64,000 bases of DNA from an uncultured Pelagibacteraceae bacterium (GCA_902587435.1 CACILF010000003.1:7801-71800); one strand, 5' to 3'. Counted from the stretch's first letter, positions 33,602-60,381 are shown. Translations and numbers: made by a program. Notes: generated by a model not told the origin, from the letters alone.

Positions 33602-33937
33602 TTAATTTACTTTACCTAGTAAATTTACAATTAAGACTCCTGCTATGATTAAAATAATTCCAATTAAACCATATGCGTTGGGCATTTGATTATATTTAAC
33701 AATCCCAAAAATTAGTATTGATGCAACTGTTACTGCACTGTAAGTGGCATATGCAAAACCTACTGGGATTGCAGACATTCCTTTTGCAAGCGAAAACATA
33801 GTTACGCACATTAAAAGTATGCAAGCCACAGATGGTGTAAGTTTTGTAAATCCATCAGAAATTTTTGCAAAACTGTTTGCAGTTATTCCACAAGATATTG
33901 CTATAAATAAAAAAATATATCCTGTGAATGGCTTCAT
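33602..33937 (-). CDS. SMR family transporter subunit (atypical, no Glu14)
   Basis: 4 TM, K.SDGFT, IPVG.AYA, G..LI..GV. Confidence 0.85.
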   Translation of the reverse strand: MKPFTGYIFLFIAISCGITANSFAKISDGFTKLTPSVACILLMCVTMFSLAKGMSAIPVGFAYATYSAVTVASILIFGIVKYNQMPNAYGLIGIILIIAGVLIVNLLGKVN

Positions 33938-34273
33938 TTAATTCGCTTTTCCTAACAAGTTAACAATTAAAACACCAGCTATAATTAAAGCAAGACCTAT
34001 CATAGTATAAAGATCTGGAATTTGTTTAAATTTATACATTCCTACAATTGTTGTTGCTATAATACAAAGTCCCGCGAATGAAGCATAAGTTATTCCAACA
34101 GGAATTGTTTTCATAACAAGTGACAATGTATACATACACCCAACAATAGTTACTGCAGTAATAACACTAGGCAACAATAGTGTGAAACCTTGTGCACCCT
34201 TAGCAAAACCATTTGATGCAGTCCCCAAAACAACCGCTACAATTAAAATTATATAAGCTGATATATTAGTCAC
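33938..34273 (-). CDS. SMR family transporter subunit (atypical, no Glu14)
   Basis: 4 TM, K.AQGFT, IPVGITYA, GLALIIAGV. Confidence 0.85.
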   Translation of the reverse strand: MTNISAYIILIVAVVLGTASNGFAKGAQGFTLLLPSVITAVTIVGCMYTLSLVMKTIPVGITYASFAGLCIIATTIVGMYKFKQIPDLYTMIGLALIIAGVLIVNLLGKAN

Positions 34274-34288
34274 AACTAAAGATTATTA

Positions 34289-34510
34289 TTAATTGGTAAT
34301 TTTATCTACAAATTTTTTTGTTGGTGGACCCACAACTAGAGATGTAATTATTGCTATTGGTAAACTTACTGACCATGCTTTAAAAAATCTTTGAGCATAT
34401 TCACTATCCATTCCAGTATTAATATATGTAATAATTAAGGTCATAAACAAACTCATTCCAAAACCCATAATTAAAATAAAAATAAAATTAGAATATTTTT
34501 TTTTTAACAT
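34289..34510 (-). CDS. DUF2798-like small membrane protein
   Basis: M...MS..MT..IT.IN.G...W..S.PIA pattern. Confidence 0.75.
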   Translation of the reverse strand: MLKKKYSNFIFILIMGFGMSLFMTLIITYINTGMDSEYAQRFFKAWSVSLPIAIITSLVVGPPTKKFVDKITN

Positions 34511-35100
34511 TATTTTTTAGACCAATTTATAGCATCTTCCATTCTATCATCTCCCCAAAAAATCTCATTATTTACAATAAATGATGGACTGCCAAAAACT
34601 TTATTGTTACGTGCACTATCTGTATTTGCTAAAAATTCTTTTTCTATTTCTTTGGAATTTGCATTTAAAATCACTTTATCTTTATCTAGTTTTAGTTCAG
34701 AACATATTTCAGAAATATTAGGTTCTACCGCAGGCTCTTTATTTTCTTGAAACCATCTTTTATAAGTGAGCCTTACATAATCAACTCCCCAACCTTCTTT
34801 TAAACCAAGTATTGCAAGTTTATTTGCTAGGTCAAATTGAGTTAATGGATACGGAACAGGAGTTTTTGCAGAAAAACCATAACCTTCTGCTCTTCTTTCA
34901 ATATCTCTCCACATGTAATCAACTTTACTTTTTTTATCATCTGGAAAAGGATGGTTATTCATTTCATTCATTATTATTCTTACACTGAATGGTTTCCAAT
35001 TAAATTTTACACCATGTTTTTTTTCAACATCCAAAATTCTTGTTACAGAAAGGTATGTGTATGTACTTCCAATAGAAAAATAAAAATCAATATTACTCAT
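34510..35100 (-). CDS. DsbA-family HCCA isomerase / kappa glutathione transferase
   Basis: IDFYFS..S.YTYL, VFGSPSF, FWGDDR. Confidence 0.9.
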   Translation of the reverse strand: MSNIDFYFSIGSTYTYLSVTRILDVEKKHGVKFNWKPFSVRIIMNEMNNHPFPDDKKSKVDYMWRDIERRAEGYGFSAKTPVPYPLTQFDLANKLAILGLKEGWGVDYVRLTYKRWFQENKEPAVEPNISEICSELKLDKDKVILNANSKEIEKEFLANTDSARNNKVFGSPSFIVNNEIFWGDDRMEDAINWSKK

Positions 35101-35484
35101 TTAACCTAAAACGTATCTAGCTGTAATTTTATTACCGTCATGGTCACGGACATAACCATAATAATTTCCATCTGATCTTAATCCTGGAGCTCCTTCATCA
35201 ACAGCACCGTTTTCCAGTGCTGTTTTATGAAATTTATCTACCGCCTCTTTTGTTTCAGCTGCCAAAGCAACCATTGTACCGTTTCCTGCGTTAGCATTTT
35301 CTTTATTGTGAGGTTTTGTAATATAAAACTTTGCTCCATCATCTTCACTAAAACCGTATCCAATATATCTTTCTGTTACGGTAACTCTTTTCATTTTAAG
35401 ATGAGCCAATATAGCATCGTAAAACTTACTAGATTTTTCAACATCGTTAGTCCCAACCATTACAAATCCGATTACTTTATTCAT
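35101..35484 (-). CDS. VOC/glyoxalase family protein
   Basis: GNGTMVAL, DEGAPG.R, YVRD.DGNK. Confidence 0.9.
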   Translation of the reverse strand: MNKVIGFVMVGTNDVEKSSKFYDAILAHLKMKRVTVTERYIGYGFSEDDGAKFYITKPHNKENANAGNGTMVALAAETKEAVDKFHKTALENGAVDEGAPGLRSDGNYYGYVRDHDGNKITARYVLG

Positions 35485-35822
35485 TATAAGTCAGGAGCTC
35501 TCACTATTTCAAATCTTAATAGTTTATTATTCTTAATAATACCATGAAACATAACTGTATCTGGATTTTTATCCGAGTCTTTCCATTTAAAAGTTCCAAT
35601 AAGTCTTTTGTCATCCTCATAAATAGATTTAATATCAGAGATTACTCCTGGTTTAGTTTTAATCCAGTCCAAACTTTCTTGTAATGTATCAAAACCTTTT
35701 TTAGGCTGGTGAAGATTTATATGTTTAAAATTATCATCAAGTATTTTTGAAATTTCCGTTGGATCACCAGACTGAAAAGCTTTAGCCCACGTTGTTAGTA
35801 ATGATTGAATTGTTAGTGACAC
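35484..35822 (-). CDS. Hypothetical, NTF2/SnoaL-like protein
   Basis: W..AF..GD.....ILDDNF pattern, distant resemblance to the next gene. Confidence 0.6.
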   Translation of the reverse strand: MSLTIQSLLTTWAKAFQSGDPTEISKILDDNFKHINLHQPKKGFDTLQESLDWIKTKPGVISDIKSIYEDDKRLIGTFKWKDSDKNPDTVMFHGIIKNNKLLRFEIVRAPDL

Positions 35823-35831
35823 AAAATAAAT

Positions 35832-36152
35832 TTATTTAGGCATTGGTGTTGCGCCAGTTTCTAAAGAAATTATCTTACCGTCTTTATACTTATAAACTGC
35901 CATTACAGCTTCAACATTTCCATCATCAAATGTTACGAATGCATGGTGTATTCCAACTTCATTATTTTCATAAACAATTCTTGTTTTATCTTGTTTAATG
36001 TCACCACTCATCGCCCATTTGATTACATCAGATTTACTTAAAGAATTTCCTGATTTATGCATTGTAAATTTAAAATCATCATGCAAAAGTTCATTCATAG
36101 CTGCTTCATCTTTATTTGTCATTGCAGCACTATATTTTTCTAAAATAGACAT
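35832..36152 (-). CDS. NTF2/SnoaL-like protein
   Basis: D...M.ELLHDDF, KDGKII.LETGATP. Confidence 0.75.
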   Translation of the reverse strand: MSILEKYSAAMTNKDEAAMNELLHDDFKFTMHKSGNSLSKSDVIKWAMSGDIKQDKTRIVYENNEVGIHHAFVTFDDGNVEAVMAVYKYKDGKIISLETGATPMPK

Positions 36153-36153
36153 A

Positions 36154-36444
36154 TTATTTTGCTCCTTTAATTATTATTACATTTCCGACAGAGTTATCTA
36201 ACCGTATCTGTCTTACCGGTTTGTATTCTTCAGAATTATAAAATTCTAAAGCTTTTTCGTAAGAGGGAAATTTAACAACGACTGTTCTAGGAAGTTTCCA
36301 TTCACCCTCAACACATTCGTAATCACCACCTCTTACTAAATATTCTCCTCCATATTTAGCAACTAGCCCTGAAGCTTTTGCTACATAATTTTTATATTCT
36401 TCAGGGTTAGTTATTTCGATTTGAAATATTGCATATCCATACAT
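36154..36444 (-). CDS. DUF1330 family protein
   Basis: YGGEYLVRGG, EGEW, FPS...A..FYNS.EY. Confidence 0.9.
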   Translation of the reverse strand: MYGYAIFQIEITNPEEYKNYVAKASGLVAKYGGEYLVRGGDYECVEGEWKLPRTVVVKFPSYEKALEFYNSEEYKPVRQIRLDNSVGNVIIIKGAK

Positions 36445-36456
36445 TTTTATTAATCC

Positions 36457-36753
36457 TTATAGATTAACTTTACTCAATTCATACATTTCAACAACTTCGA
36501 TACATTCATCAAAAATAGGTTTTGCAATTGGGTTATTACCTGAAGCAAACTTCTTCATTTCTTCTTCATTATGAACCGAGACTTTAAACATAACATAACT
36601 TTTATCTGGTCCTATTCCTGGAACTGTTTTTTCAACATGAGCAACAGTTTTTCTTACTGCCATTCCTTCATCTGATTGCATAAATCCCATGAATTTTTCA
36701 AATTTTCCCTCTCCAGATTTAATTCTTGCTATTGCAAGCATTTCCTTTTCCAT
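36457..36753 (-). CDS. Hypothetical protein, first gene of the small-gene operon
   Basis: 98-aa ORF with strong AAGGAG RBS. Confidence 0.75.
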   Translation of the reverse strand: MEKEMLAIARIKSGEGKFEKFMGFMQSDEGMAVRKTVAHVEKTVPGIGPDKSYVMFKVSVHNEEEMKKFASGNNPIAKPIFDECIEVVEMYELSKVNL

Positions 36754-36829: not shown

Positions 36830-36852
36830 ATCAGGTATGCATTAATTATATC
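36830..36852 (-). promoter_or_regulatory. Putative LysR-type operator
   Basis: Minus strand GATATA-ATTAA-TGCATA-CC-TGAT; 12/12 identity TGCATACCTGAT with 45168-45179. Confidence 0.5.
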
Positions 36853-37847
36853 CAGTTAGGAAATGGTAGGCCTTTTTCTTCTAAAAATTTTTTATTAAAC
36901 ATCTTTGAGTTGTATTTATCTGATTTATCGCAAAGAATAGTGACAATAGTTTTTCCTGGCCCGAGTTCTTTTCCTAGTCTTATTGCTCCTGCAATATTAA
37001 CTCCACAACTTGTACCAAGACTTAAACCTTCATTTTGAATTAAGTCATACAGAATAGGTAAAGACTCATGGTCACTTATTGAAAATGCCCCATCTATTTT
37101 AGCTTCAGCAAAATTAGCTGTTACTCTACTTGAACCAATACCTTCAGTGATTGATCCTCCTTCACTTTTTAACTCTCCATTCTTTATATAATTGTAGAGA
37201 GCCGAACCTGTTGGATCAGATAAATATATTTTTATATCTTTATTTTTTTCTTTTAAATAACTACTCACACCGCCAATTGTTCCACCAGTTCCAGATGAAC
37301 ATACAAACCCATCTACTTTTCCATCTGTTTGCTCCCAAATTTCTGGTCCAGTTGTTTCATAGTGTCCTTTAGCATTAGCAGTATTATCAAATTGATTAGC
37401 CCAAACTACACCATGATTATTTGTACTCTTTAATTCTTCAGCTACTCTTTTTGCAACTTTTACGTAGTTACCATCATCTTTGTAAGGTTTTGGCGGCACA
37501 AGTTTTAAATCAGCACCTATATTTCTTAACATATCTTTTTTCTCTTGGGTTTGGTTATCGTTCATTACAATTATAGTTTTATAACCAATTGAATTTCCAA
37601 TAAGACAAAGACCAATTCCAGTATTACCTGCAGTGCCTTCAACTATTATTCCACCTTTTGAAATTAATTTTTTTCCTTGTGCATCTTTTATTAGTGCTAA
37701 AGCCGCTCTATCTTTAACTGATCCTCCAGGGTTTAAATATTCTGCTTTACCATAAATATTACAACCCGTTATTTCTGATGCAGCTTTGAGTTTGATTAAT
37801 GGAGTGTTTCCTATTCCCTCAATGAAATTATTTTGAGAATTTTTCAT
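36846..37847 (-). CDS. cysK: Cysteine synthase
   Basis: [18 protein letters not shown] lysine, TAGNTG, GTGGT. Confidence 0.93.
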
Positions 37848-38413
37848 TTATTATCTCCATTAGCAATACCGTAAGGTTTAAATTCTTCAGTTGCTGTTCC
37901 AACATTTTTTGCAGGGATACCAACCATAACTGCATTTTCAGGAACATCTTTTGTTACAACTGCATTTGCGCCAATTTTTGCATTTTTACCAACTACGACA
38001 GGTCCTAAAACTTGAGCTCCAGAACCCACAACCACATTATCCATTAATGTTGGATGTCTTTTAGAACCTCTTTGATCATTTGAATTAATACTTGGTGAAA
38101 TTCCTCCCAAGGTAACCATATGATATATCGTTACATTGTCACCAATTTCAGATGTTTCACCAATAACAACACCCATACCATGATCTATAAAAAGATTTTT
38201 ACCTATTTTGGCTCTTGGGTGAATTTCTATTCCAGTTAAAAATCTTGAAAATTGTGAAATTATTCTTGCGATTAAATCTAACTTAGCAATTGAAAAAAAA
38301 TTAGCTATTCGATGAAAAAAAACAGCTTTAACACCCGGGTAAGTTAATATTACACTTAGCTTGGATTTAGCAGCTGGATCCCTGTTAATTATGGATTCTA
38401 AAAAACTATTCAT
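37844..38413 (-). CDS. cysE: Serine O-acetyltransferase
   Basis: RDPAA, TGIEIHP, FIDHGMG, KRHPT, hexapeptide repeats. Confidence 0.95.
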
Positions 38414-38448
38414 GATATTTAAATTATTTTGATTATTTAAATGATCAG

Positions 38449-38568
38449 TTAGTTGTCACAACAACAACTACCTGAATCAGGTTTGCATGAGCACTCTTTG
38501 ATTGCATCACAAGTGCATCTATCACTAATACAATTTGTACATTTACATTTTGGGTTATCGCATGCCAT
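38449..38568 (-). CDS. Uncalled 39-aa metallothionein-like protein
   Basis: [39 protein letters not shown]; 11 Cys of 39, three CxC plus CCC, no aromatic residues. Confidence 0.85.
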
Positions 38569-38623
38569 ACTATGAATATAATATGTGTTGATATTTAAAA
38601 TACAAGGTCAAATTTGTCACTAA

Positions 38624-39316
38624 TTACAATCTATCTAAAGTAAGTCCTTTAACATTTGCAGGTACAGCAATATCCATCATCTTGGGATTTGCTAAGTTTA
38701 GATTATTCATTATTTCTGCATACTGTTCTTTTGAACTTACTTGAAGTCTAGGATTATTATTTTTTTCATTTTCAATTGTTGAGTATTTTTTTCCATTATA
38801 ATCATGTGCTGGATACACCAAAGTGTCTTTTGGTAATTTTAGTAATTTATTAAATAAAGATTCATAAGCATCTTCTGCACTTCCATTTTGAAAGTCTGTT
38901 CTTCCAGTTCCATTTATTAAGAGAGTGTCACCTGTAAAAACTCTGTCATTCATTAAATAACTGTAAGAACAGTCTGTATGACCCGGAGTATAAATTGCTT
39001 TAAGTTCTATGTTTTCTACATTTATTTTTTCACTATCTTTTATTCTTAAATCAATTACTTCAGATTTAGATTTTTCTCCCATAATTCTAGTACAGTTAGT
39101 TCTTTTATTTAGTTCGTTTAATCCAGTGACATGATCTGCATGTATATGTGTGTCAATTACTTTAACTAATTTTAATTCTAAATTTTTTAATACCTCTATG
39201 TATTTATCTGTATGTTCAATTACAGGATCAATTATTAAGGCCTCTCTACCTTTTCCACTTGATATAATGTAAGTGTAGGTTGAAGATTTGGTGTCAAATA
39301 ATTGTTCAAATATCAT
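38624..39316 (-). CDS. ETHE1-like persulfide dioxygenase (MBL fold)
   Basis: SSTYTY, IDPV, THIHADH, TPGHT, GRTDFQ, YPAHDY, NPRL, AVPAN. Confidence 0.88.
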   Translation of the reverse strand: MIFEQLFDTKSSTYTYIISSGKGREALIIDPVIEHTDKYIEVLKNLELKLVKVIDTHIHADHVTGLNELNKRTNCTRIMGEKSKSEVIDLRIKDSEKINVENIELKAIYTPGHTDCSYSYLMNDRVFTGDTLLINGTGRTDFQNGSAEDAYESLFNKLLKLPKDTLVYPAHDYNGKKYSTIENEKNNNPRLQVSSKEQYAEIMNNLNLANPKMMDIAVPANVKGLTLDRL

Positions 39317-39339
39317 TAGTTACTAAATACTATAAAAAA

Positions 39340-39368
39340 TTGCATAGCAAATCAATCTTGCTTATAAT
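39340..39368 (+). promoter_or_regulatory. Sigma70-type promoter of peroxiredoxin
   Basis: TTGCAT-17nt-TATAAT followed by AAGGAG RBS. Confidence 0.65.
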
Positions 39369-39400
39369 AATTCTAAAAAACAAATTCAAAGGAGAATTGA

Positions 39401-40063
39401 ATGACTTTAAAAATAAATAGTGTAGCTCCAGATTTCAAAGCTAAAACTCAAATGGGAGAAATTTCGTTTCATGAGTGGCTTGGAGATAGTTGGGGTGTTT
39501 TATTTTCACACCCAAAAGACTTTACTCCAGTTTGTACAACTGAACTTGGTGCATTAGCAAAAATGAAACCAGAGTTTGACAAAAGAAACGTAAAAGTTAT
39601 GGGTTTAAGTGTAGATCCAGTTGATGATCACGTGAAATGGATAGATGATATTACAGATGTTTGTGGAATGAAACCTGAGTATCCAATTGTTGCTGATGAA
39701 AAATTAGAAGTTGCAAAACTTTATAATATGCTTGAAGCAGATGCAGGTGTAAGCTCAGGTGGTAGAACTGCAGTAGACAATGAAACAGTTAGAACAGTTT
39801 ATGTAATAAGACCAGATAAGAGAATTGGTTTGTTTTTAACATATCCGATGACAACTGGTAGAAACTTTCATGAGATCTTGAGAGCTATAGATTCAATGCA
39901 AAGAACTATTAAACATAAAATTGCTACGCCAGCTGACTGGAAGCCTGGAGAAAAAGTAATTATTGTTCCTAAAGTTACAAATGAGGAAGCAAAAAAAATA
40001 TATCCAGATGGTTGGGAAACAATAAAACCTTATTTGCGTAAGGTTCCAGATCCACATAAATAA
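39401..40063 (+). CDS. 1-Cys peroxiredoxin (Prx6)
   Basis: FSHPKDFTPVCTTE, YP.TTGRNF.EILR, ATPADW. Confidence 0.94.
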   Translation: MTLKINSVAPDFKAKTQMGEISFHEWLGDSWGVLFSHPKDFTPVCTTELGALAKMKPEFDKRNVKVMGLSVDPVDDHVKWIDDITDVCGMKPEYPIVADEKLEVAKLYNMLEADAGVSSGGRTAVDNETVRTVYVIRPDKRIGLFLTYPMTTGRNFHEILRAIDSMQRTIKHKIATPADWKPGEKVIIVPKVTNEEAKKIYPDGWETIKPYLRKVPDPHK

Positions 40064-40065
40064 AT

Positions 40066-40719
40066 TTGGATCAAAAAAAATTAAACCAACAATCTCAGCA
40101 TTGGGAAAATAATTTCTCAAGTAAGCCTGAGATGTTCGGTTTAGATCCAAGTTTATCGGCAAAAAAAGCTCTGAAACTTTTTCAAGAAAAAAATATTAAA
40201 AGTGTAATTGAGCTCGGAGCAGGACTAGGAAGAGACACTATTTTTTTTGGAAAAAACTTAATCCACACGATAGCTTTAGATTATAGTCCATCTGGAATTA
40301 AAGTTATTGATCAGAAAATAAAAAAAGCAAATTTATCTAAATATATTTCAAGTAAACTATTTGATGTAAGAGAAAAACTTCCATTCGAAGATAATTCTAT
40401 AGATGCATGCTATTCTCATATGCTTTATTGCATGGCTTTAACAACTGAAGATTTGGCAAAACTAAATAACGAGATTAAAAGAATTTTAAAACCTGGTGGT
40501 ATTAATATTTATACAGTGCGCCACACAAATGATGGTGATTTTCAAAATGGAAATCACATAGGGGAAGATTTATATGAAAATGATGGATTTATTGTTCATT
40601 ATTTTTCAGAAGAAAAAATTAATTCTTTATTAAATGGATTTAAAAACATTAGTCTAGAAAAATTTGAAGAAGGTACCTTTCCAAGAAAATTATATTTTAT
40701 TGTAAATGAAAAAAAATAA
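40066..40719 (+). CDS. Class I SAM-dependent methyltransferase
   Basis: IELGAGLGRD, LPFEDNSID, RILKPGG. Confidence 0.88.
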   Translation: MDQKKLNQQSQHWENNFSSKPEMFGLDPSLSAKKALKLFQEKNIKSVIELGAGLGRDTIFFGKNLIHTIALDYSPSGIKVIDQKIKKANLSKYISSKLFDVREKLPFEDNSIDACYSHMLYCMALTTEDLAKLNNEIKRILKPGGINIYTVRHTNDGDFQNGNHIGEDLYENDGFIVHYFSEEKINSLLNGFKNISLEKFEEGTFPRKLYFIVNEKK

Positions 40720-40720
40720 T

Positions 40721-41416
40721 TTATTTTTTGTATTTTTTCATACAAACTTCAGCTAATAACAAGTTTGGATCAATAAAGAGCCTTGATTCTTTAGCTTTTC
40801 TAAATGATTTGTAAGCAAAAATAGCTATTGGTAATTCTGTACATCCCAAAATAATTTTTTTACACTTTTTTCTAATTAAATATTTTACAGCAGCTCTTAA
40901 TGCTATTTCAGCTTCTTTAACTTTACCCATTTTAACAAGTCTTATTGCTTTATTTACAGAATTTTTTTGTAATTTTTTTTCAGGACTAATTAGTTTAAAA
41001 TTTTTATCAAAATAATCATTATAAATATTTGTTTTTAAAGTTGCCTCAGTACACAAAATACCAATAGTAGAATTTTTTTTACACTTTTTTTTTGTATGTA
41101 AATAAACTTCTTTTGGCATACTTAGCAAAGGAACATTGATTTTCTTTTGAATATCTTTGTGCCAATAATGTGCAGTATTGCATGGCATAACAATAAATTT
41201 ACATTTATTTTTTTGTAACATTTTACAACCATCAACAAGGGCTTTTAAAACATTATAGTATTTCTTTAAATTTTCAGGTCTTTTTGGTGTATTAGATTTA
41301 TTGTAAAGAATAAACATTGGGTATTGTTGATCTAGTTTGCCCCGGTTAAGTTTTGCTAATTTATTACAAAAATCTAAACCTGCTTGTGTTCCCATTCCTC
41401 CTAATATTCCGATCAT
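40721..41416 (-). CDS. Aspartate/glutamate racemase family (possibly cysteate racemase)
   Basis: IGILGGMG, PCNTAH and LGCTELP catalytic cysteines. Confidence 0.88.
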   Translation of the reverse strand: MIGILGGMGTQAGLDFCNKLAKLNRGKLDQQYPMFILYNKSNTPKRPENLKKYYNVLKALVDGCKMLQKNKCKFIVMPCNTAHYWHKDIQKKINVPLLSMPKEVYLHTKKKCKKNSTIGILCTEATLKTNIYNDYFDKNFKLISPEKKLQKNSVNKAIRLVKMGKVKEAEIALRAAVKYLIRKKCKKIILGCTELPIAIFAYKSFRKAKESRLFIDPNLLLAEVCMKKYKK

Positions 41417-59938: not shown

Positions 59939-60381
59939 TGAGCCAAGAGATACTAAAATTTAATTGGTCATGTAATCACACTTGGAAAAGAAGTGCAAAA
60001 AACACAGCTTGGTGTTTACTTGGATGTGCTATTGGGGATTTTGGCACAATATTATTTTTTCAGTTAACAAAAATTCCATTTCCAGTTTTAAATATTATGA
60101 TTTTAGCAATTATAAATGGTTTAATAACGAGTATTATTTTAGAAACTATAATTTTAATTAAACAAAACATTCCATTTCTAAAATCATTGAAGACCGCAAT
60201 GGGAATGAGCATTATTGCCATGATAAGTATGGAGATAGCAATGAATGCTACAGATTATATTTTAACTGGTGGCGCCATATTAAATTGGTGGATTGTCCCA
60301 ATAATGCTAACAGTTGGTTTTTTAACACCCTGGCCATATAATTATTGGAGATTGAAAAAATACAATCAAACCTGTCATTAA
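59938..60381 (+). CDS. DUF4396 family membrane protein
   Basis: T.WCL.GC.IGD, MS.I.M..ME...N, P.PYN. Confidence 0.8.
   Translation: MSQEILKFNWSCNHTWKRSAKNTAWCLLGCAIGDFGTILFFQLTKIPFPVLNIMILAIINGLITSIILETIILIKQNIPFLKSLKTAMGMSIIAMISMEIAMNATDYILTGGAILNWWIVPIMLTVGFLTPWPYNYWRLKKYNQTCH

Follow-up and report, generated by a model that had tools for sequence, protein, structure and literature searches.

A metallothionein-like, cysteine-rich peptide gene between persulfide dioxygenase and cysE-cysK in a Pelagibacter lineage, with relatives in marine phages

The locus and its enzymes

The window analysed here is a stretch of 64,000 nucleotides from an uncultured Pelagibacteraceae bacterium (GCA_902587435.1, CACILF010000003.1:7801-71800), whose genome assembly is 71% complete. 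The genes and features under study are as follows, with positions counted from the first letter of the window and the basis of each assignment in brackets.

36846-37847, minus strand: cysK, cysteine synthase A (PRK10717 type), 333 aa (NF007989)
37844-38413, minus strand: cysE, short-type serine O-acetyltransferase, 189 aa (TIGR01172)
38442-38479, minus strand: predicted RNA hairpin across the Cys35-37 codons and the stop codon of the peptide gene (folding energy and covariation)
38449-38568, minus strand: peptide gene, 39 aa with 11 Cys, metallothionein-like (orthologue conservation)
38575-38605, minus strand: candidate promoter of the peptide gene (TTG-type -35, TAT-type -10, no Shine-Dalgarno site)
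38624-39316, minus strand: PDO, type I (ETHE1-like) persulfide dioxygenase, 230 aa (PDB match and active-site residues)
39317-39400, no strand: PDO/Prx divergent control region (sequence; function inferred)
39401-40063, plus strand: Prx, 1-Cys (Prx6-type) peroxiredoxin, 220 aa (PF00578 and PF10417)

The five open reading frames, their strands and their spacings, first described in a reading of the sequence alone, were all re-derived (gaps of 55 nt and 35 nt, and a 4-nt overlap between cysE and cysK), and the gap between the divergent PDO and Prx genes is 84 nt. The identities given to PDO, CysE, CysK and 1-Cys Prx in this sequence-only reading also hold, as judged by profile and PDB matches. 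The PDO has the metallo-beta-lactamase fold; its top PDB match is the Myxococcus xanthus enzyme (4YSB, E 9.5e-69), and it is also close to Arabidopsis and human ETHE1. It retains T56, H57, H59, D61, H62, H113, D130, R139, H171, Y173, R190, P211 and K212, the active-site residues for iron and glutathione named in PMC6060420, and thus carries the Fe ligands, the GSH-binding Arg/Tyr/Pro/Lys and the THxHADH motif of type I PDOs. Position 224 is a glycine, so that the surface Cys224 (Cys247 in the human enzyme), reported to be strictly conserved and essential in type I PDOs (PMC6060420), is missing; this segment lacks cysteine throughout a set of about 300 Pelagibacter loci that come almost entirely from the near PDO clade. 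CysE scores 217.7 bits against TIGR01172 (cut-off 210.65) and ends without the C-terminal Ile, its gene having no Shine-Dalgarno site. CysK scores 518.5 bits against NF007989 (cut-off 387) and contains the PLP-lysine motif SVKDR, while the Prx combines the PVCTTE peroxidatic motif with a 1-cysPrx_C domain, as Prx6-type enzymes do. PDO, CysE, CysK and Prx are ordinary enzymes, and the enzyme cluster alone is ordinary. The lack of assimilatory sulfate reduction in characterised SAR11 strains, noted in the sequence-only reading, fits five genomes carrying the peptide gene (hereafter carriers), where the sulfite reductase domain was not found, in agreement with PMC5069961. No gene for a metal sensor or a metal transporter adjoins the locus.

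The cysteine-rich open reading frame is a real gene of no catalogued family

The cysteines of the peptide lie at positions 3, 8, 10, 13, 18, 20, 26, 28, 35, 36 and 37, and the peptide of the window has no histidine, no aromatic residue and no signal peptide. Three lines of evidence show that the 39-codon open reading frame is no chance frame but a genuine gene on which selection acts. First, the cysteine positions are invariant in the first ten orthologues compared, which share 44-74% identity and the same genomic position; in the family at large, the eleven cysteines are fixed in a CxC-rich spacing and the remaining residues drift. Second, most of the Cys codons alternate between TGT and TGC with the residue unchanged. 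Third, closely related pairs show a pN of 0.037 vs a pS of 0.157. The family as sampled (70 variants) comprises peptides of 36-44 aa with 10-13 Cys, 30% cysteine and 0.6% aromatic residues.

Gene callers mostly skip this frame, which is uncalled in all six contigs that have an identical PDO. The peptide has no match in Pfam, NCBIfam or PHROG and no meaningful match in the PDB, and none of 20 family members matches any Pfam family; matches to mucin and to the LDL receptor were rejected as noise of cysteine composition. Its nearest neighbour in a language-model comparison is the metallothionein cluster PF02067 (0.85), a sub-threshold score that chance sequences can reach, and the HMM of this metallothionein family 5 gives no match to the peptide even at E 10. 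The AlphaFold model is of low confidence (pLDDT 59.5) and uninformative. The peptide is in no catalogued family, and a literature search of incomplete coverage returned no description of a SAR11 metallothionein or of this peptide family. We also considered, and rejected, a cysteine-modified RiPP precursor of the MNIO type: no modifying enzyme adjoins the gene, and a search of five carrier genomes for PF05114 found none.

Distribution and gene order

Of 401 Pelagibacter genomes, 73 have the peptide gene, each as a single copy; searches of 100 genomes from ten other genera of the order and of 300 genomes of other Alphaproteobacteria found none. Where it occurs, it lies immediately after PDO (68/68 loci) and immediately before cysE (66 of the 67 informative genome loci), and the order PDO-peptide-cysE was found in 108 of 120 further genome hits. 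The linkage to cysE-cysK claimed in the sequence-only reading, which homologues mostly unlinked to these genes would have contradicted, is therefore the rule. On the cysE-cysK tree the presence of the peptide needs two changes and fits about one gain and one loss, so this synteny is mostly one inherited event and not repeated independent evidence. Among 100 loci with the peptide, 67 have Prx and PDO in divergent orientation.

The enzyme genes have a wider distribution. PDO is present in 121 of 130 near-complete genomes, as is cysE (likewise 121/130). Adjacency of PDO and cysEK (31/122 genomes) belongs to one lineage, that is one PDO clade: 33 genomes have a PDO that shares 79-91% identity with that of the window, and in 31 of them it adjoins cysE. 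PDOs of the other clade are 60-68% identical to it, and some are fused to rhodanese; among 20 of their loci examined, cysEK is nearby in one and Prx in none. Fourteen of the 31 PDO-cysEK genomes have the peptide and 17 do not. At least seven loci have the peptide with PDO and without cysE, and at least seven others have it with cysE and without PDO.

Two roles in which the peptide would replace another component were rejected, and a third, as a source of a missing cysteine, was not supported. Replacement of glutathione was suggested by the lack of gshB in three carriers, yet gshB was found in 12/13 carriers of a larger sample; replacement of DUF4396, a frequent neighbour of PDO, is contradicted by most carriers, the genome of the window included, which also have DUF4396; and supply of the missing PDO Cys224 finds no support, this cysteine being lost in genomes without the peptide too.

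Promoters and transcription units

Upstream of the peptide gene, a TTG at -34 and a TAT at -12 occur in 29 of 32 representative loci (shuffled controls: mean 0.39, maximum 3), and the same motif in 50/58 of a second, partly overlapping set. The locus of the window is off-register, with its TTG at -37 from the peptide ATG. None of the 32 representative loci has a Shine-Dalgarno site before this ATG, and the promoter is probably leaderless or followed by a leader of at most about 3 nt, as judged from these spacings. In peptide-less genomes, a promoter motif of the same 22-nt geometry precedes cysE (13/15 representatives), whereas in carriers it precedes cysE in one of 28 loci, which is the chance level. 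Because the peptide gene has a promoter of its own and the cysE of carriers lacks the usual one, the predicted transcription unit is likely peptide-cysE-cysK, with the peptide as first cistron.

The region between PDO and Prx contains a TTGCAT-17-TATAAT element (39340-39368), an AGGAG Shine-Dalgarno site for Prx, an overlapping candidate promoter for PDO and a TTGC-ATA-GCAA palindrome; this control block is found again upstream of many PDO genes. On the simplest view, PDO and Prx make up a divergent pair of their own, with PDO transcribed from the region it has in common with Prx; read-through from PDO into the peptide gene is possible. Of the one co-transcribed block originally proposed, promoter anatomy thus keeps the peptide gene and cysEK together and takes PDO out. 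Two studies provide RNA-library contigs that span these junctions, one across PDO-peptide-cysE (38337-38905) and one across peptide-cysE (38225-38543); they fit co-transcription, weakly, as they may be DNA.

The cysE-type promoter is also found at trxB in six genomes. In its 22-nt geometry it is similar to the heat-shock promoters of groES, ibpA and grpE and to the RpoH1 consensus in the literature; with weight matrices, however, groES ranked 33rd and ibpA about 80th of 934, too low to support an assignment of this promoter to sigma-32.

The proposal of a single integrated system of four genes is not borne out: the peptide promoter lies downstream of PDO, PDO and cysE adjoin in one clade only, more than half of the PDO-cysEK genomes do without the peptide, and copies of the peptide persist without cysE or without PDO.

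A hairpin at the 3' end of the peptide gene

The sequence-only reading saw no obvious terminator between the cysteine-rich frame and cysE. A consensus scan indeed found no canonical one; a conserved hairpin nevertheless lies there. It spans the codons of Cys35-37 (38458-38466), with its loop at the third terminal Cys codon and the stop codon in its 3' arm, followed by a variable U-tract. The hairpin of the window has a folding energy of -14.2 kcal/mol (z -2.8; mean z -1.8 over 63 representatives), whereas the fold of the whole frame is unremarkable (z -0.29). In 50 gap-free sequences, 75% of the cells pair, vs 68% in shuffled ones; double-sided changes number 55, vs 28 in shuffled ones, a covariation that the kinship of the sequences inflates, the structure moreover being derived from the sequences on which it was tested. 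Slid registers score lower. The mean MFE is -9.3 kcal/mol, the most stable segment along the peptide gene; swapping the 3' halves raises it to -6.5, and recoding the codons synonymously to -4.8. RNAalifold returned no consensus structure. The hairpin is also present in a cysE-less copy followed by a convergent gene, and no specificity to cysE-linked copies was seen, eight copies without cysE being equally paired (8.75 vs 8.95 pairs, p 0.43). It is probably, in the main, a weak terminator or a 3' stabiliser of a short message.

The same elements raise the possibility, which we consider unlikely, that the frame doubles as a cysteine-sensing leader, a function compatible with metal binding. Under a shortage of Cys-tRNA, ribosomes dwelling on the Cys-Cys-Cys codons would keep the hairpin melted and thereby raise read-through into, or translation of, cysE-cysK. 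The layout would suit such a role, since the peptide gene is the predicted leaderless first cistron, its tri-Cys tract lies 25-39 nt upstream of cysE, the covarying hairpin is centred on the CCC codons, the CCC tail occurs in Pelagibacter copies and not in the phage relatives described below, and mycobacterial polycysteine attenuators are laid out in the same way (10.1101/834739). However, cysE has no Shine-Dalgarno site to sequester and the hairpin stops short of its start; the eight earlier Cys codons would stall the ribosomes first, letting the hairpin form, which is the wrong direction; and both the equal pairing in cysE-less copies and the limits of the covariation and RNAalifold results given above weigh on the same side.

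Relatives of the peptide in marine phages

A DNA pattern built on the first six cysteines matched 43 viral (marine phage) contigs and 33 further metagenome contigs that are not of the Pelagibacter type. The phage-type peptides are 21-62 aa long, acidic and often preceded by a Shine-Dalgarno site; all of them contain an additional cysteine, Cys15, and none has the CCC tail. Both Cys26 and Cys28, neither of which was in the search pattern, are present in 13 of the 18 phage-type peptides that are long enough. An hhalign comparison of the Pelagibacter and phage-type peptides gave a probability of 97.6, which is partly so by construction. The cultured phage genomes gave no match to the family. There is no cysE near the phage homologues, and neither PDO nor CysK beside them. 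Since they keep the cysteine register without a cysE nearby, the peptide product itself appears to be selected.

The viral peptides vary more than those from the one Pelagibacter locus, a difference suggesting that the Pelagibacter peptide was captured from a phage; we infer the direction of this transfer, because a rooted tree is impossible at peptide length. Its position could then be historical, a single phage-derived capture in a plastic region having displaced the cysE promoter with no tie to cysEK or PDO. We hold this to be rather unlikely. The single gain and loss on the cysE-cysK tree, the nature of the region, a shuffled gene array, and the survival of copies that lack either neighbour all speak for it. 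Yet the position is held across loci whose cysE falls to 70% identity and in some loci without PDO or cysK (L284 and L454), and just one clean loss was seen despite genome streamlining.

The neighbours of the phage genes include those for the baseplate wedge, the head protease and an exonuclease, and, in about three viral lineages, those for NifU, IscA-like, glutaredoxin or ferredoxin proteins; a single copy from a bacterium lies in frame with a ferredoxin. The phage copies that overlap a NifU-domain gene, join IscA-like or glutaredoxin genes or lie near a ferredoxin gene, along with this in-frame fusion, could mean that the ligand of the family is iron or an Fe-S cluster, or that the family acts as an escort in Fe-S assembly, instead of buffering Cu or Zn. 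This is improbable in our view, as such neighbours, given here as raw counts, are missing from about half of the viral groups, and chelation of Cu in protection of Fe-S clusters predicts the same neighbourhood.

An equally improbable role is that of a store of persulfide or reduced sulfur for CysK and PDO, a possibility raised in the sequence-only reading. It would account for a gene lying between those of two persulfide-consuming enzymes, would have a precedent in mammalian MT-3, which carries sulfane sulfur (PMC12618007), and could be related to the missing surface Cys224 of Pelagibacter PDOs. Against it, Cys224 is absent from peptide-less genomes as well, 12 of the 15 carriers with a completeness of at least 90% have glutathione synthetase, so that the normal persulfide carrier exists, 17 of the 31 PDO-cysEK genomes manage without the peptide, and its phage relatives have no adjacent PDO or CysK.

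A proposed metallothionein-like metal buffer as the best explanation

We propose that the peptide is a metallothionein-like thiolate metal buffer, co-expressed with cysEK beside an independent PDO/Prx pair, and give this reading a probability of roughly 0.55. According to this proposal, a peptide gene placed between PDO and cysE in one Pelagibacter lineage would encode a cytoplasmic product, and its leaderless promoter would replace the usual cysE promoter to yield a peptide-cysE-cysK transcript, with a weak hairpin at the 3' end of the frame stabilising or partly terminating a short message. The peptide would form a thiolate cluster around several ions of a soft metal such as Cu(I), Zn or Cd; metals would thereby be buffered, and thiols as well as Fe-S centres protected. 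The promoter common with cysEK would match cysteine supply to a peptide costly in cysteine. The PDO would remove surplus glutathione persulfide by oxidation. As glutathione persulfide is accepted by cysteine synthases (PMC13188885), CysK and PDO may compete for it, which would make sense of the neighbourhood whether or not the peptide is there. The analysis establishes that the gene is real, how it is distributed and placed, and that a promoter-like motif, the hairpin and homologues in phages exist; the ends of the transcripts, the binding of metals, control by stress and an origin in phages are what we infer in this scheme.

In favour of a metal buffer, the small size, the high cysteine content, the CxC and CC motifs and the few aromatic residues are those of metallothionein anatomy, and a P1B metal-efflux ATPase occurs in 6 of 131 genomes, none of them a peptide carrier. 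Against it count the lack of any match to metallothionein profiles and structures; the lack of an adjoining gene for sensing or transporting metals; the many Pelagibacter, indeed most, that have neither the peptide nor a P1B ATPase; the roughly single origin of the cysEK link, broken in at least seven loci each way; and the report that cysE and cysK are not induced by sulfur limitation in strain HTCC1062 (PMC5069961), which may not be a carrier. A composite reading, in which a phage-derived gene of metallothionein type gained the CCC tail and the hairpin, and now both buffers metals and senses cysteine for cysE-cysK, strikes us as distinctly unlikely.

Pelagibacter, the most common bacterium of the ocean, mostly lacks the standard metal-efflux ATPase, which bears on its handling of Cu and Zn. 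The peptide is a 39-residue candidate metal binder that about a fifth of the sampled species carry and that annotation mostly misses, and the relatives in phages suggest that viruses hold a pool of metal-binding genes so far overlooked. If the tri-Cys hairpin does sense cysteine, polycysteine attenuation extends beyond mycobacteria; and if the composite reading were true, a metal-binding protein would also be an attenuator leader, in a regulator-poor genome.

Comparison with known systems

Like SmtA/BmtA, the metallothioneins of Synechococcus and Pseudomonas (PflQ2 MT), the peptide is small, cytoplasmic and rich in cysteines with CxC motifs. It matches neither their profile nor their solved structures, and whereas SmtA/BmtA have a Cys9-His cluster with a conserved His, the peptide family has no conserved His; the known cases also come with an SmtB-type repressor, none of which lies beside the peptide gene (the His ligand and the repressor are described in PMC7387436). 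The peptide therefore appears metallothionein-like by anatomy, and not a member of SmtA/BmtA or of any profiled family. Metallothionein family 5 (PF02067) resembles it in having about 40 aa and all-Cys ligands. MymT, the mycobacterial Cu(I) metallothionein, is encoded by a small, Cys-rich and originally unannotated ORF (PMC7558416); the peptide gene is alike in these respects, but no sequence match between the two was detected, and, unlike MymT, the peptide occurs in Alphaproteobacteria and phages, beside cysEK.

The type I PDOs, such as the M. xanthus enzyme and human ETHE1 (4CHL), have iron ligands, GSH-binding residues and the THxHADH motif in common with the PDO of the window, which differs in having no counterpart of Cys224/Cys247.

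The mycobacterial attenuators Ms5788A and Rv2334A are leaderless polycysteine sORFs (10.1101/834739), and the peptide gene, as predicted from its sequence, shares one trait with this class, in that it is a leaderless sORF which has two or more Cys codons in a row and heads a cysteine-metabolism operon. Both have a leaderless first ORF (predicted here), a Cys run in an RNA structure at the 3' end and cysteine-metabolism genes downstream. In the attenuators, the Cys tract pairs with the downstream ribosome-binding region, whereas here it pairs with the last codons and the stop of its own ORF, the hairpin missing the start of a cysE that has no Shine-Dalgarno site. The peptide has eight further cysteines in fixed spacing, and it has homologues that exist without a downstream operon.

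Gene surroundings of the persulfide dioxygenase

The genes lying on both sides of the cysK-cysE-peptide-persulfide dioxygenase (PDO)-peroxiredoxin locus, and the distant DUF4396 gene of the same window, are as follows:
33602-36753, minus strand, array of about ten small genes directly 3' of cysK
40066-41416, methyltransferase gene, then a convergent racemase gene, beyond the peroxiredoxin gene
about 59956-60378, DUF4396 gene

The small-gene array includes DUF1330 and SnoaL-like members among others, and its 98-aa gene (36457-36753) had no match in Pfam or NCBIfam. The likeness of the methyltransferase to the selenoprotein MduS domain amounts to 244 bits, which is under the cut-off. For the cysteate racemase CuyB, the racemase falls slightly short (165 versus a cut-off of 190).

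DUF4396 occurs in 114 of the 131 genomes. In most other Pelagibacter, it adjoins the majority-clade PDO (loci L179-L198), frequently accompanied by a cupredoxin-like, small cytochrome c or thioredoxin-fold gene, and several of these PDOs (about 338 aa) carry a rhodanese fusion. We also noticed a separate cysE-cysK-PDO juxtaposition involving a majority-clade PDO (L181, genome G436). As for metal efflux, a P1B heavy-metal ATPase was found in only 6/131 genomes, all 6 being complete genomes (L199-L204).

Promoters

The promoters of trxB and cysE are of one conserved form, CTTTwAA, 15 nt, CTATATA (genome G000, C1:11849; L488-L492), and the high-ranking genes for it also include an Rrf2/IscR-like one and an IscA-like one. 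Such genes possibly constitute a thiol/Fe-S stress regulon. A CATATA -10 element lies 6-7 nt 5' of the grpE ATG (L172-L174), and grpE appears to be leaderless.

Relatives of the cysteine peptide and of the PDO

On marine phage contigs, a ribosomal protein L33 gene (L329:4367-4537, L337:1283-1453) neighbours glutaredoxin, IscA-like and cysteine peptide genes in shuffled order. A Tenericutes bin harbours a 17-Cys repeat of the cysteine-peptide motif in frame with a ferredoxin (L287:820-1200), and an Epsilonproteobacteria bin (L317) a 56-aa, 16-Cys version close to groES-groEL. The contigs labelled Polaribacter (L296; Pelagibacter-type peptide-cysE block) and Nitrospinaceae (L309; phage-type peptide) are probably both misbinned.

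The Pelagibacter PDOs examined (window 38624-39316 and about 300 loci) lack the C-terminal cysteine, a residue that type I PDOs are reported to require and to conserve strictly (PMC6060420).
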